Shown here: positions 45,212 to 51,853 of the stretch, piece after piece | Numbering within the stretch: the first letter of the stretch is position 1 | Layout: each line of letters starts with the position of its first letter | Assembly: GCA_020353515.1 (NCBI GenBank) | Contig: CP070695.1 | Location: forward strand, 2,130,571 to 2,194,570 | DNA: 64,000 nucleotides | From: Candidatus Heimdallarchaeota archaeon | Lineage (GTDB): Archaea; Asgardarchaeota; Heimdallarchaeia; Hodarchaeales; Hodarchaeaceae | Direction of reading: 5' to 3' | The notes under the pieces: model-generated | The model's database searches: none | The model's input: only the letters and a program-made list of their open reading frames with translations | Told to the model about the DNA's origin: nothing | Translations under genes and position numbers: made by a program

Positions 45212-46819
45212 ATGCTGATTTTTAATGAGAGAATGAGAATGATGAAAAAAAAATATGATACTCCCCTTGCACAAGCAATTGCTGATGCTTATGCAAATGG
45301 TGAGGACGATGAAACTCTAGAACCAATTATTCTCGTAGATGAAAATCATCTACCACAAGGCCGATTAGAATCCAAGGATTCGCTTATTTTCGCAAATATT
45401 CGAGGAGAAAGAGAAGTAGAACTAACCCAAGCTCTCACAGAAGAACGATTTCCACATTTTCCTACTCTTTATCTTAATCTCACTGTATCTACTATGATAA
45501 TGTACCATCCTGATTTGAATGTCAATGTGGCATTTCCCCCGACTGAAAATCTAAATAATAGTATAACCGAATTCTTGAGTAAAAATGGAAAACGAATCCT
45601 AAAATGTGTTGAAAGTGAAAAAGCGATCCATCTTACCTATTTCTTCAATGGAAAACAACATTCAAAATTCCCTAATGAAGATCAAGTAATTATTCCTTCA
45701 CATGAAACAGAAGATTTAACTGAATTTCCTGAAATGAAATCAGCTGAAGTAGCCAATACTACTATCAATGCTATGACAGATGGAAATTATGATTTAATTG
45801 TCACAAATATATCGCCTTGTGACGTTATGGGACATATAGAGAGAAAAGAAGTAGTTGGAAAAGCGATTCATGAAGTTGACGAACAGTTAGGTCGTATAGT
45901 TACTTCTGCAATAACTACTGGGTATACAGTATTTGTTACAGCTGATCATGGAGTTGCAGAATCTTGGCTTTACCCCGATGGAACCATTGACACTGGACAT
46001 ACATCTAATCCTGTACCCTTCTTGATAATTTCTGATAAGACGAGTGAAATACAATTAAGAAGTGGGGGTTCTCTTGTTGACATTGCGCCTACAATTTTAG
46101 AAGTCATGGGCCTTGAAAAACCTAAAGAAATGCAGGGAAAAACTCTCCTGCAGAATGAAATATCATTCAAAAGTCATTATGTTCTCCTATTAATTTTAGA
46201 TGGTTGGGGTTACAATCCAGATTCATATGGTAATCTATTCTTAGAATTTGGCACACCTAATATGGACCAGTTACGAAATGCGTTTCCTTTCACTACTCTT
46301 ATTGCTTCTGGACCACCTCTTGGTATGCCAGAGGGAACAGTTGGTAATAGTGAAATAGGTCATCTACATATGGGGATCGGAAGACGTGTTGTAAGCGATC
46401 GAGTAAGAATATTTGATGCTATTAACAATGGAGAATTCTTCCAAAACAAAGCTTTCCAAGAAGCTATTTCAAAAGCTAGAGAGAATAATACTGCTCTGCA
46501 TCTACTAGGAATTATTAGTTTCTACAGTTCTCATGGTTCAATTAAATACCTTGAAGCGCTAATGGAACTGGCTGAAAGAGAAAAACTTCCAAAAATCTAT
46601 TTACATGGAATGTTAGGACGACGAGGGGAAAAGCCAGAGGCAGGGGCTCATTATGTAAATCAAATTGAGCTTAAGGCTAAAAAAATGGAAAATATCCGAT
46701 TCGTTTCCGTTATTGGTCGTCATTGGGCGCTCGATCGAGAAAAGAATTGGGATAGAATCCAAAAAACTTATGATATGTTAGTCCATGGAAAAGGAAAACA
46801 TATTAAGGATTTTCAGTAG
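45212..46819 (+). CDS. gpmI: 2,3-bisphosphoglycerate-independent phosphoglycerate mutase, circularly permuted
   Basis: All iPGM motifs are present (ILDGWG, GNSEIGH, GRHWALDR, ESEKAIH, DVMGH, TADHG, HTSNPVP, DIAPTIL) but the two halves are swapped. Confidence 0.88.
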   Translation: MLIFNERMRMMKKKYDTPLAQAIADAYANGEDDETLEPIILVDENHLPQGRLESKDSLIFANIRGEREVELTQALTEERFPHFPTLYLNLTVSTMIMYHPDLNVNVAFPPTENLNNSITEFLSKNGKRILKCVESEKAIHLTYFFNGKQHSKFPNEDQVIIPSHETEDLTEFPEMKSAEVANTTINAMTDGNYDLIVTNISPCDVMGHIERKEVVGKAIHEVDEQLGRIVTSAITTGYTVFVTADHGVAESWLYPDGTIDTGHTSNPVPFLIISDKTSEIQLRSGGSLVDIAPTILEVMGLEKPKEMQGKTLLQNEISFKSHYVLLLILDGWGYNPDSYGNLFLEFGTPNMDQLRNAFPFTTLIASGPPLGMPEGTVGNSEIGHLHMGIGRRVVSDRVRIFDAINNGEFFQNKAFQEAISKARENNTALHLLGIISFYSSHGSIKYLEALMELAEREKLPKIYLHGMLGRRGEKPEAGAHYVNQIELKAKKMENIRFVSVIGRHWALDREKNWDRIQKTYDMLVHGKGKHIKDFQ

Positions 46820-47235: not shown

Positions 47236-48042
47236 TTATTGTCTCCTTTTCTTTTTTGAACTAAGTAAAAGGTTACAATACGCTTTTACTTTCTCATCAG
47301 TAGTCTCACGAGCTAATAAACCAATAGTTTCTAATAAATGTGCCTTTTCAACCTTTTTTATTTGATTTTTTTCACAAAACTTTGTCAATTGTTGATCCAA
47401 AATAGGATTTGAATGTAATAAAGCTGCAAGGATTTGAAAAACTGTATTATCTTTACGTCCCTTTCTCAACGCCTTAAGGGCCATTTTTTCTGATTTTTGG
47501 AATTTTCCTGACCGATATAGTGGAATGATCACAGGATACCAGTCTTTAGCCCTTTGTTTCATCCAATCTTGAATTTCGCGAATATCATTCACTCGTTCTT
47601 CCCAGTGCTTTTTAAATTGCTCATTTGGGAACCTTATTTCTGGCCAGGCTTCAATTTTGGCTACTAATTTCACATATTCATCATAACGATCGATTTGAGC
47701 TTCTCTTTCTCTAATAGCAAATTCTAGTGCTCCTAATACGAATCCAGCAGAGAATTCTTTAAGGCAAACCTCAAGATTTTCTCGAAAAATCACCTCTTGA
47801 ACCTGTTCTAAGAGTTCCCTATTACTTCGTAGAGTTGATTCTGATTCTTTTGAGATTTCTTTGGGGTGTTGCTCAAGATAATCAAGAGCCCAAAATAGGA
47901 ACATCGCTTCTTCTTCTGATTGTTTTGAACGAATAAACTCAGAAATATCTTGTGGGCTTCTAGTAAGAAGTAAAAGCTTTATTTGATCAAAATCTACCTT
48001 AGGTTGTGCCAAGATATTCCACTCAAAGATAGGAAATATCAA
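47236..48042 (-). CDS. Hypothetical all-helical protein
   Basis: Long ORF with helical, charged composition; abuts the DNPH1-like gene. Start uncertain. Confidence 0.65.
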   Translation of the reverse strand: MIFPIFEWNILAQPKVDFDQIKLLLLTRSPQDISEFIRSKQSEEEAMFLFWALDYLEQHPKEISKESESTLRSNRELLEQVQEVIFRENLEVCLKEFSAGFVLGALEFAIREREAQIDRYDEYVKLVAKIEAWPEIRFPNEQFKKHWEERVNDIREIQDWMKQRAKDWYPVIIPLYRSGKFQKSEKMALKALRKGRKDNTVFQILAALLHSNPILDQQLTKFCEKNQIKKVEKAHLLETIGLLARETTDEKVKAYCNLLLSSKKKRRQ

Positions 48043-48080: not shown

Positions 48081-50294
48081 TTACCCTAGCAGCATGCGAT
48101 AGACTTCTTTTGGATCGTGTTCACCTGGAGCTCGAATCTTAAATCGGATCTCAACTGTTTGTCCAGGTTGAACCTCTTTATAAACCCATTTCATAGCGCG
48201 ACCGTTCTTCACTGAAGAATGCTCCTCAAAACCGACTGGTGGATCTTCTTCTGTATCCGATACCAACTCAAATCCTTGAGGTAAGAAATCACTCACTTCT
48301 ACATTTTGAATTACTGCAGTACCCTCATTTTCCCCTCGAATAACGATCTCATATTCGTTTGACGCCTGACCAGACGTTGAACGAACCATCTTGCCAATTT
48401 TAAGCTTACGACGTTTATGTACAACAGTGATTGGACCTGCTTCTGCATCTGCCGATACAGGTTTGACTGGAGGAAATATATTTGCTAATACTGTCACATT
48501 TCCCATGAATTCATCTTCTGGTTGAGCAGTAGCGAAGAATGGATAGGTGACAAGAATCTCTTCGTCTTGCTTCAATGTTCCAATAGAGGAATATTCGAGA
48601 CGTTCGATGGTAACTATCACATTTTCTTCAGTAATTTCTAAGGTGAAATCATCTTCAGAAACCTGTTTATCACCCTTAGTAATCGTGATATTCTCTTTAG
48701 CAGGAGCCTCAAAACCATCTGGAATCTGATCTTGAAGTTGGACATACTCAACATCAGTACTTCCAGAAGATCGTATGATATTTTCAGTTATAATCTCAGT
48801 ACGTCTATAAGAAGGTATTGTATCAGGCGAGAAAGTCTTTGAGACTACAATATCCATAAAGGGTAACGCATAACCAGGAAGGGTACATTCAGCAATTATT
48901 TCTGCATCAAAAAGATACTTCACTGAGAGATCCAGTTCTCGTCCAAATTGTGGAATTACACCATCTTCTTCAACAGTTATTGTCCAAGGATCCAATGAAA
49001 AGGTTTCACCAGGATCTATAGAACGCTCTTCTTCAGGAAAGTCACTACCTAGCCATTCTAACCTCACATTTCCCTCATCGAGGGGTCCCTCATAAATTCT
49101 TACTTCTTTCAAATCCATCTCAAATTCTGAAGTATTTTCTAATTCAAATTTACAATCAAAATCACCAGGATTTTCTTCTTGCTCATCCCGAGAAATAAAT
49201 TGGAATACAGAAGAAGATCCTGTGATAGTTTCTAAATTTACGTCTGAAAGGCTTTTCTCAAAAGAGTGGTATGTTACTACGGTGTCTCCAATCTTATAGG
49301 GTTCCGTTGTGTCCTCTGGTAAGTTTACCCGAATCTCACAACTTGCTTGGACTGTTGAGTTTGCAGGTAGTTCAGCAATTTCCCATCGAATGGTATCTCC
49401 ATCCATACGCATTTCCCCATTCTCTGTTTTAAAATTGTCAATATTAGTATTAGGATCAAGAATATGTTTTTTCAAAACTACATTTTCCAGATTCCATTCA
49501 AAATCGTTTCCTAGTTCTATAGTAAAACGCATACCTGCTTCAGTACCTCGAGAGAAGGTAGGAGGTGAATCTGGTTTTTCTAAATCCCAGAATTCCTCTT
49601 TAATTCTCAATTGCGGTACTTCCACGCTAAAATCAAAGTGTACACCTTTTGTTTCCTGTGGAGAAAGTTCTTTGATTCCAAACGAATTACCAAAGACTAT
49701 AATTTCTTGGTCTTCACTACGATCGAAGGTTACTTCGTCTACTCCTTCTAAGAATGCATCTATAGCCCAAATTCGATCATTACTCCCTGTATTTGTAACT
49801 CCGATTTCCCCTTTTCCCTGTAGAGTTTCAATAGGCTCATCGTTTTCACCTATTAGATTGTTATCCTGATCTATTCTATAAGTTAGTGTTTCCTTTAATT
49901 TTACATGTAATCCAGCTTGTTTTACCTCATGTTCCTCAAGAGCTCGAAAGTCCTCCCTTGCTCTTCTTGCATCTTCCTCAGAAAAATCAGTTTCTGGAAG
50001 TGAAGCTCCCGAACTCCGGATTTTTATGGTAATATCTTTTGCTTTATTTCGTGCTCCTCGATCTTTATCATTTTCAGCGATCTTTTCAAGAACGGGAATT
50101 GCTTCTGGGTCATTTAATTTCCCCAAAGATTCAATAGCTTCTTTTCGTACATCTTTTTCACTATCACCTTCAGCAACTTCGAGTAGTGCGCGAAGAGAAA
50201 CTTTAGTACGAGTATTTCCCAATGCTTTTGCTGCTGCTACTCGTTTATTTTTGTCACTACTTTCTAAATTTTGAATTTCTGACATATTACTCAC
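48081..50294 (-). CDS. HEAT-repeat + mu-homology-like + tandem beta-sandwich protein (acidic, no signal peptide)
   Basis: About 3 HEAT repeats (KRVAAAKALG, DVRKEAIESLG, GARNKAKD) in aa 1-92; beta-rich region in aa 128-737. Confidence 0.7.
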   Translation of the reverse strand: MSNMSEIQNLESSDKNKRVAAAKALGNTRTKVSLRALLEVAEGDSEKDVRKEAIESLGKLNDPEAIPVLEKIAENDKDRGARNKAKDITIKIRSSGASLPETDFSEEDARRAREDFRALEEHEVKQAGLHVKLKETLTYRIDQDNNLIGENDEPIETLQGKGEIGVTNTGSNDRIWAIDAFLEGVDEVTFDRSEDQEIIVFGNSFGIKELSPQETKGVHFDFSVEVPQLRIKEEFWDLEKPDSPPTFSRGTEAGMRFTIELGNDFEWNLENVVLKKHILDPNTNIDNFKTENGEMRMDGDTIRWEIAELPANSTVQASCEIRVNLPEDTTEPYKIGDTVVTYHSFEKSLSDVNLETITGSSSVFQFISRDEQEENPGDFDCKFELENTSEFEMDLKEVRIYEGPLDEGNVRLEWLGSDFPEEERSIDPGETFSLDPWTITVEEDGVIPQFGRELDLSVKYLFDAEIIAECTLPGYALPFMDIVVSKTFSPDTIPSYRRTEIITENIIRSSGSTDVEYVQLQDQIPDGFEAPAKENITITKGDKQVSEDDFTLEITEENVIVTIERLEYSSIGTLKQDEEILVTYPFFATAQPEDEFMGNVTVLANIFPPVKPVSADAEAGPITVVHKRRKLKIGKMVRSTSGQASNEYEIVIRGENEGTAVIQNVEVSDFLPQGFELVSDTEEDPPVGFEEHSSVKNGRAMKWVYKEVQPGQTVEIRFKIRAPGEHDPKEVYRMLLG

Positions 50295-50554: not shown

Positions 50555-51853
50555 TTATTTGAGTAGCTTCTTTGCTTGATCTTGCCACTTTACCAATCTT
50601 CTCCTTGAAACCCTGAGGTTTCTTTCTAATTCTTCCAAATCAACTTCTACTAAGTCTTTCAAAGTCATTATTCCAACAGTATTTAATTGGTGAGCTGTTT
50701 TTGTACCAATTCCTGTGATTGATGTAAGATTGACCTCTTCAAATGGAGGTCGACTTGGTGAAGATGGAATATCATATTCTTGTCCTGCAAAGATTGCAGC
50801 ATTCTTCTTCCATTTGTTATAAGTCTTTTCACTTGTTGAATCCTTGAAAAGTGCAAAAGATGAATTTAATAAGTCTTGAACCGTTAAAATCCCTCGTTGG
50901 TTTAATTTTTGAGCAGTTTTAGTTCCTATCCCTTTGATACTAGTAACTCGTTGATATAAAGGATCTAATGCCTCTGGTTCTATGACCTCGGGGAAATCTA
51001 CAGATTTACCAATGGACGCAAGAACTTTAATTAAGCGAGACATTGACATTCTTAATGTTTTTCGTAGAGTTTCCATGTCATCGAAGTTTAAAAGATCTGC
51101 TCTTGATGAGATTCCAAGTTTTGCTAGTCTTTCAATAGATTTTGGTCCAATCCCGCTAATAGAAAGTAGATCTTCTGGAATGGGAGTATATTCTTCGGGA
51201 GTAATAGAGCGTTCGACTTCCTTACTTATGAGAAACTTAGCATCTTCGAGCATATGAAGCAATTTAGTATCACTTACACGCATAACTTCAGCAAGAGATA
51301 CACGATCAGGATAACCTAAGAATTCCGAGATCGAGTAGACTTGGAGTTTTACCAATCGACTGGCATAAGTTTTACCAATCCCCTTTATAGCAGTAACAGC
51401 TGTTTCACTTGGGTAAATTACCTCTTTAGTTTGAATATAAGGCTCTGGTATAATCTCTTCAGTAACTACTGGAGCTTCAATATATTCCTCAACAAGTTTC
51501 AATGGACCAGCAGCAAGCATTGGTGGTTCAATTCGTTCAATGTGTTCGACATAGAATTTCTGATCAAGTGAAAAGATATCAGTTTCTACCTGAATCCGCC
51601 ATATACCATGGTGTTCATCACGAATGGTACGTGGGATTGGCCAAGTCAATTCAATTCCTTGGTCTGATCCTTTTCCATACCTGTTTAATCGCGAATTATT
51701 ACGTTTATCGAGAATTTGTAAACGGTATTGATAGGGTATCTGGTCCCCAAATGTTACTTGGATATTTATCATCTCTCCAGGAACAACTGCAAAAACTTTA
51801 TACATTGGATTCTTTGCTTTCCAGATGGAGATCGAAGACATAATTATACCCAA
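50555..51853 (-). CDS. Protein with N-terminal beta-sandwich domain and four HhH (RadA-N/HHH_5-like) modules
   Basis: IKGIGKTYASRL, ISGIGPKSIERL, IKGIGTKTAQKL, ITGIGTKTAHQL. Confidence 0.8.
   Translation of the reverse strand: MGIIMSSISIWKAKNPMYKVFAVVPGEMINIQVTFGDQIPYQYRLQILDKRNNSRLNRYGKGSDQGIELTWPIPRTIRDEHHGIWRIQVETDIFSLDQKFYVEHIERIEPPMLAAGPLKLVEEYIEAPVVTEEIIPEPYIQTKEVIYPSETAVTAIKGIGKTYASRLVKLQVYSISEFLGYPDRVSLAEVMRVSDTKLLHMLEDAKFLISKEVERSITPEEYTPIPEDLLSISGIGPKSIERLAKLGISSRADLLNFDDMETLRKTLRMSMSRLIKVLASIGKSVDFPEVIEPEALDPLYQRVTSIKGIGTKTAQKLNQRGILTVQDLLNSSFALFKDSTSEKTYNKWKKNAAIFAGQEYDIPSSPSRPPFEEVNLTSITGIGTKTAHQLNTVGIMTLKDLVEVDLEELERNLRVSRRRLVKWQDQAKKLLK

Follow-up and report, generated by a model that had tools for sequence, protein, structure and literature searches.

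A predicted mu-homology domain in a HEAT-repeat protein of Hodarchaeales and its relatives across Asgard archaea

We analysed a 64,000-nucleotide stretch of the Candidatus Heimdallarchaeota archaeon genome (contig CP070695.1, positions 2,130,571 to 2,194,570; hereafter the window), and in particular a gene on its minus strand at 48081..50294, an open reading frame of 737 codons. From orthologue sequences and structural models we confidently predict that its product, here called HEAT-MHD, carries a two-lobed mu-homology domain (MHD) that is a true homologue of the eukaryotic one, with which the adaptors of vesicle coats hold their partners. The explanation that we favour, and hold to be reasonably probable, is that HEAT-MHD is a soluble, non-enzymatic scaffold protein built around this MHD core, in which the MHD and the beta-sandwich that follows it (D3) would bind a ligand, the N-terminal HEAT module would serve for docking and two C-terminal domains (D4 and D5) would form a stalk. 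In this explanation it does not amount to a coat adaptor complete in itself. The coordinates of its domains given below all refer to the minus strand.

The predicted MHD occupies aa 125-362 (49209..49922), with subdomain A at ~125-243, subdomain B at ~244-352 and a return strand at 353-361. An earlier, sequence-only reading of the gene had proposed an MHD here from the order of its motifs, and all the motif strings that it cited are found in the translation. Adap_comp_sub (PF00928) matched 24 of 33 orthologues at E ≤ 1. The best match, in P0015, had an E-value of 9.3e-8 and aligned aa 157-354 to profile positions 40-233 of 259; with 32.2 bits against a cut-off of 31.6, this was the single orthologue of the 33 to score above the Pfam cut-off. 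A second orthologue aligned at aa 124-350 to profile positions 15-231, and the muniscin muHD (PF10291) was matched by four of the 33 at E ≤ 1. We then used a family alignment consisting of the MHD segments of 64 diverse family members. PF00928 was matched by 38 of these segments at E ≤ 0.01 (best 1.1e-11), and when the resulting profile was compared with 177,635 distinct PDB sequences, the top 21 matches were all AP-3 mu, AP-2 mu or delta-COP (E 8e-4 to 0.023). For delta-COP, profile positions 5-188 were covered (chain 11-203), and a sub-threshold match to a gamma-adaptin ear (E 0.18) fell on subdomain B. The MHD-only family profile was required for this result, as a profile of the whole protein retrieved only HEAT designs and one pilin from the PDB sequences, and no mu chain.

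The predicted structure agrees with these matches. The AlphaFold2 model of the full-length protein, made with the 33 orthologues, has a mean predicted local distance difference test score (pLDDT) of 86.5 and consists of six helices (aa 2-95), a linker with little order and four beta-only blocks, with low confidence confined to the linker and the first four residues. We compared it by Foldseek with solved MHDs, which included those of mu4 (3l81/4mdr), mu2 (5wrk/9fiw), mu1 (1w63), mu3A (4ikn), delta-COP (4o8q, 5fjw), Syp1 (3g9h) and SGIP1 (5awr). The model aligned to MHD-only crystal structures (mu2, mu1, mu4 and delta-COP) over ~245-260 columns with TM-scores of 0.60-0.68 (target-normalised), superposing on the solved MHDs through subdomain A, then B, and back to A. 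The strand at aa 353-361 aligned with mu2 residues beyond ~394, around which the mu2 chain passes from lobe B back to lobe A. Because the sequential alignments extend to mu2 residue 413, past this return point, the interleaved topology of an MHD is present in the model. This is the topology that the sequence-only reading had proposed to look for, and independent, sequential immunoglobulin (Ig)-like domains, which would have spoken against it, are not what the model shows. Pfam matches in orthologues, the reverse search of PDB sequences and solved MHDs as best fold matches thus all support the MHD proposed at aa ~125-362.

The end of the MHD seems to be completed by D3, a family-specific beta-sandwich that spans aa 363-476 (48867..49208) in the full model. 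In a model of the isolated segment aa 118-376, the last 14 residues (aa 363-376) were disordered and the closing strands of mu2 (~414-435) remained unmatched. In contrast, in the full-length model the match ran to the mu2 C-terminus and to aa 474 within D3, with ~22 extra residues aligned, and because of this difference we suggest that D3 supplies the strand or strands that close lobe A. Furthermore, invariant columns of the orthologue alignment lie closest together at the MHD-D3 junction (aa 354-403), and in most family representatives the MHD is followed by D3. The invariant junction sits where mu2 has the strand that bears half of its tyrosine-motif pocket, with the pocket residues F174, D176, W421 and R423. 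We propose a ligand-binding role for MHD-D3, which as a unit would probably bind a short peptide or a strand of a partner, like eukaryotic MHDs.

The gene itself is well supported. Its probable start is the ATG at 50285, three codons after the GTG from which the 737 residues are counted, giving 734 aa as in a 100%-identical database protein (P0002) and most orthologues. It is single-copy in the 4.94 Mb single-contig source genome. By word-index search we obtained 54 orthologues that are 42-88% identical to it and nearly as long, and since they keep both length and architecture, the reading frame is real and conserved, not a chance one. Where annotated, the orthologues are called 'HEAT repeat domain-containing protein' and assigned to Hodarchaeales/Hodarchaeota or Heimdallarchaeota, with a few labelled Thor- or Promethearchaeota.

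On the N-terminal side of the MHD lies a HEAT module of three PBS-lyase-type repeats with six helices (aa 1-95; 50010..50294). HEAT repeats had been read at aa 1-92 from the sequence, in agreement with the six model helices at aa 2-95 and with Pfam HEAT_2 (PF13646), which matched aa 8-85 with E 2.3e-15 and 57.1 bits against a cut-off of 27.7, alongside HEAT_PBS; HEAT_2 was matched in all 33 orthologues. The solved sequence relatives of this part are alphaRep designs and bilin lyases. Compared with PBS-type HEAT proteins such as the alphaRep designs, E. coli YibA (1oyz) and CpcE/F (5n3u), the archaeal protein has three repeats only, uses them as an N-terminal module and shows no sign of lyase function. 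An acidic linker (aa 96-124; 49923..50009; net charge -6) joins the module to the MHD; it contains a helix at 106-114 and has pLDDT below 50 at aa 100-103.

Downstream of D3 the model places D4, a CnaA-type pilin-like Ig domain (aa 477-627; 48414..48866), and D5, a CLIPPER domain (aa 628-737; 48084..48413) that ends in a helix at aa 728-736. With D3 at 363-476, D4 at 477-627 and D5 at ~628-727, the roughly three extra Ig-like sandwiches expected from the sequence are all found in the model. The last of them had been called DUF11-like, correctly so, as PF01345 (DUF11, now named CLIPPER in Pfam) matched aa 631-722 with E 1.1e-12 and 48.7 bits against a cut-off of 24.6, and TIGR01451 matched D5 with E 5.7e-7 (29.4 against a cut-off of 24). 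D4 matches the pilin-type TIGR04226.

The block from the MHD to D5 is conserved across Asgard archaea. With the non-HEAT part as query, a full HMMER scan covering 1.84 billion cluster representatives gave 583 matches at E ≤ 1e-3, of which 124 reached E ≤ 1e-30. Domain-profile mapping found the order MHD-D3-D4-D5, a block of ~590 aa, in most of 149 listed representatives, and detected HEAT in eight of these 149. The N-termini are variable and comprise from zero to several hundred residues, many members beginning with the MHD at residue 5-25. At E ≤ 1e-20 the family was matched in 72 of 151 sampled genomes of the phylum, in 44 of 72 high-quality genomes and in 34 of 52 genera, mostly as a single copy. 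Named members are Thor-, Loki-, Borr-, Ran-, Kari- and Hod-archaeal, and among the nameable ones the HEAT N-terminus belongs to Hodarchaeales-type and Kariarchaeaceae proteins. Searching longer proteins by word index with the MHD family profile brought up that Hodarchaeales set again, along with DUF11 repeat proteins, and added no taxa. A Pfam scan of 59 extensions in family members, whether N-terminal, C-terminal or internal, gave only two matches, one to NACHT/NPHP3_N and one to DUF11, with no longin-type (Clat_adaptor_s, PF01217) or other trafficking domain.

Two variants of the block were seen among its members. P0135, P0173, P0186 and P0199 carry insertions of 340-420 aa between the two MHD lobes, in which no Pfam family was matched. 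In P0096 (L008:7001-10969, Ca. Borrarchaeum), MHD-D3-D4-D5 is followed by ~650 residues that match NACHT/NPHP3_N, a fusion to a STAND-type NTPase.

The C-terminal domains raise the question of where the protein resides. A Lys-Asn isopeptide bond with a catalytic acid is the pattern described for CLIPPER and CnaA domains, and in D4 the residues Lys486, Asp/Glu522 and Asn605 form a predicted isopeptide-type triad that is kept in the orthologues (K486 in 32 of 33, D/E522 in 31 of 33 and N605 in 33 of 33) and only partly retained across the wider family. D4-D5 would act as a stiff stalk, possibly locked by such an intramolecular bond. We note that an intramolecular isopeptide bond would be unusual in a protein without an export signal. 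Could HEAT-MHD then be a cell-surface stalk or adhesin-like protein that leaves the cell by a non-classical route? Fibrillar adhesins and pilins typically contain CLIPPER and CnaA domains with isopeptide triads, and the triad in D4 fits this idea. However, the protein has neither a signal peptide nor a transmembrane segment, as had been claimed from the sequence (the highest 19-residue Kyte-Doolittle mean is 1.46 and lies within a beta region), a transmembrane-like segment is lacking in 121 of 124 family representatives, and many family members start with the MHD. HEAT repeats are, moreover, typically intracellular, and every solved MHD match is a cytosolic eukaryotic adaptor protein. The known stalks, namely CLIPPER (9ifr) and the CnaA domains of SpaD (4hss), Sgo0707 (4igb) and RrgB (2y1v), belong to exported, repetitive surface fibres, whereas the archaeal protein has no export signal and only two such domains, placed after an MHD. 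We therefore give a surface location the least credence of the explanations considered, and regard it as highly improbable.

A possible partner of the soluble scaffold that we favour is suggested by the gene neighbourhood. The adjacent gene at 50555..51853 on the minus strand encodes a protein of 428-432 aa with an N-terminal beta-rich region of ~100 aa, which matched no family, followed by four to five helix-hairpin-helix (HhH) motifs (HHH_5, 1.7e-26). An HhH gene stands beside the MHD gene in every HEAT-bearing locus examined, adjoining it in L001 (4651-5832), L003 (4371-5708), L005 (5425-6837) and L006 (5430-6788) and in G015, G036, G054 and G148, these last being four genomes from a second family within the class. 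The two genes are in tandem in two Hodarchaeales-type loci (L001 and L003; gaps of 168-292 bp) and divergent in two distant HEAT-type members (L005 and L006; gaps of 164-213 bp). Furthermore, at least 20 pairs of HEAT-MHD and HhH orthologues lie on contigs of identical size. The genes that flank the pair vary, with a SUF operon in the distant loci and a thymidylate kinase and a major facilitator superfamily (MFS) transporter in the window. Among three HEAT-less members examined, there was no HhH gene beside the MHD gene in L007 and L008 and no HhH match anywhere in G092, an 85%-complete genome. As a matter of gene neighbourhood, then, HEAT-MHD and HhH are a conserved pair that tracks the HEAT module, and the HhH gene is the only conserved neighbour, with no GTPase, longin or solenoid gene conserved. 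The HEAT module, on its flexible tether, would dock a second partner, for which the HhH protein is the leading candidate. Co-folding of aa 1-476 with the HhH protein, using alignments for both chains, gave 0.01, 0.58 and 0.24 in three runs against a mark of 0.32, which is evidence neither way.

HhH motifs are classic non-sequence-specific DNA binders, and the pair could therefore have a nucleic-acid-linked role, the two proteins working together on DNA or the nucleoid, for example in tethering or organising it, and the MHD being unrelated to membranes. No other neighbour is kept across both Hodarchaeales and a second family of the class, and the HhH gene holds its place despite the change of orientation and the differing flanks. 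However, neighbourhood alone shows neither binding nor a common pathway, HhH modules mediate protein contacts too, and scans with Pfam and NCBIfam found no nuclease, polymerase or other DNA-processing domain in either protein. We consider this role unlikely.

The other genes around HEAT-MHD are not shared in this way. A 268-aa protein that is mostly helical by sequence is encoded 38 bp downstream of the MHD gene (47236..48042, minus strand); no Pfam or NCBIfam family matched it. It has a 38%-identical counterpart in a close relative, Ca. Hodarchaeum mangrovi (L003:8708-9484), and was not found beside the gene in L001, L002, L005 and L006. The Rab-like, longin-roadblock and DENN-like genes of the window were rejected as linked partners, none being seen in flanks of up to 7 kb in L001, L005 and L006, and an unrelated Arf-type gene lies 5.5 kb from the MHD gene in L001. 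Further away in the window, a cofactor-independent phosphoglycerate mutase (45212-46819, plus strand) matches Metalloenzyme/TIGR01307 positions 208-504 at aa 13-313 and the start of iPGM_N at aa 402-530, a swapped order of parts that suggests a circular permutation.

Several points weigh against the interpretation of HEAT-MHD as an MHD scaffold with an HhH partner. The homology of the MHD rests on orthologues, the family profile and predicted structures; in the Pfam scan the window's own protein gave no reported PF00928 match. Within aa 118-362 nothing corresponds to the final ~20 residues of the eukaryotic MHDs, among them the mu2 strand with W421 and R423, and for the ligand pockets, the tyrosine-motif one of mu2 or the Trp-motif site of delta-COP, the fold comparison gives residue ranges and not residue pairs. 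The protein has a net charge of -70 overall, and its MHD is strongly acidic (net -25), in contrast to mu2, whose lipid-binding surfaces are basic. Nothing yet supports a link of the protein to membranes. Its binding partner, ligand and location are predictions, the connection to the candidate HhH partner is one of gene neighbourhood, and with 164-292 bp between them the two genes are probably separate transcription units. In addition, part of the MHD sequence signal is shared with a common Ig-like family, since subdomain B also matches DUF11 (PF01345) in 44 of the 64 family members (best 5.5e-11).

This last point leads to an explanation in which the region is merely a tandem array of DUF11/CLIPPER-type Ig domains, its likeness to an MHD being convergent or a matter of a generic Ig-like fold. 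The sequence-only reading had offered tandem DUF11-like domains as its alternative, and this holds for D4 and D5 and in part for subdomain B: hhalign aligned subdomain B with D5 at E 0.0014, and the MHD profile cross-matches both D5 and adhesin repeats. It fails for the region as a whole. The PF00928 match to profile positions 15-231 and the delta-COP match to chain residues 11-203 reach into subdomain A, and no pilin or CLIPPER chain was among the matches when the family MHD profile was searched against the PDB sequences. As a control, 56 DUF11 repeats in three giant adhesin-like proteins gave zero PF00928 matches at E ≤ 1, indicating that the PF00928 signal is not a by-product of DUF11-like sequence. 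An array without an MHD is accordingly very unlikely in our view.

The idea with which the gene had been singled out was a fused proto-adaptor. In its full form, this would be a single-polypeptide proto-coat adaptor in which a HEAT trunk carries an MHD that selects membrane cargo tails, while Ig appendages bring in coat or accessory proteins, perhaps under the control of a nearby small GTPase. The MHD appears genuine, the source organism is from the archaeal group put forward as closest to eukaryotes, and the protein shares with mu-adaptins, delta-COP and muniscins the layout of an N-terminal anchoring module, a flexible linker and an MHD. The remaining parts, however, do not correspond. The N-terminal module is HEAT, not longin or F-BAR as in the AP mu chains, delta-COP and muniscins, with which identity is 8-18%, and no longin domain is fused in the 59 family extensions either. 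Adaptin_N (PF01602) was unmatched, the HEAT part having ~95 aa and three PBS-type repeats versus ~500-600 aa for a trunk solenoid. D4 and D5 are CnaA and CLIPPER domains, and the appendage families Alpha_adaptinC2 (PF02883) and B2-adapt-app_C (PF09066) gave no match to the protein at E ≤ 0.1, and neither is one of the 25 families with the most matches in the 33 orthologues (E ≤ 1). The 50 fold matches listed for the whole model, rows taken up by MHD, HEAT and D4, include no appendage, and we recognised no platform subdomain. In contrast to eukaryotic MHDs, the archaeal domain is acidic, its final ~20 residues appear to be replaced or completed by D3, and three more beta-sandwiches follow it. 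No heterotetramer partners comparable to those of AP complexes are evident, and the sole conserved neighbour is the HhH gene. GTPase, longin and DENN genes were unseen in the flanks described above, and proximity to a GTPase gene is expected by chance because small GTPases make up to 2% of Asgard genes. We conclude that the fused proto-adaptor is not supported and that a proto-coat adaptor of this kind is quite unlikely. Lacking an adaptin trunk, an appendage and a longin domain, the protein gives no grounds for claiming a complete archaeal coat.

For every adaptor domain, homologues in Asgard archaea have been reported before (Eme et al. 2023, Nature 618:992; PMC10307638). They were hits at the Pfam level, with a distribution described as sparse and with no fusion between one adaptor domain and another. 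In the part of the paper's candidate table available to us, Loki-, Hel-, Hermod- and Jord-archaeial Adap_comp_sub (PF00928) entries share the MHD, the junction into D3 and the DUF11-like tail, and so belong to the same family as the MHD-D3-D4-D5 representatives found here. Since these relatives are listed there, an MHD-like domain in Asgard archaea was already known. The HEAT-bearing Hodarchaeales form was not found in that part of the table, which does not show it to be absent. We came across no fold test in that paper, nor the breadth of the family, closure by D3, the link between subdomain B and CLIPPER, the D4 triad or the HhH neighbour; relative to it, the present analysis compares the fold with solved MHDs and finds the family in 72 of 151 sampled genomes. 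Our literature search found no paper on an archaeal mu homology domain.

How vesicle-coat adaptors arose is an unsettled side of eukaryogenesis, and a confidently modelled MHD in the order proposed to be sister to eukaryotes provides a testable object. It raises the questions of what ligand the archaeal MHD binds, whether it contacts membranes and whether it works jointly with the HhH neighbour. The likeness of subdomain B to CLIPPER and the closure that seems to depend on D3 hint at how a two-lobed MHD may have been built from ordinary Ig-like domains. More speculatively, the Asgard MHD-D3-CLIPPER family might be the prokaryotic stock of the eukaryotic MHD, the MHD having arisen from CLIPPER/CnaA-type Ig domains; we regard this as tentative and rather doubtful. 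If it were true, the cargo-binding module of the AP, COPI, TSET and muniscin adaptors would have begun as a soluble archaeal scaffold, one that in Heimdallarchaeia already had the layout of docking module, linker and MHD together with a dedicated partner gene.

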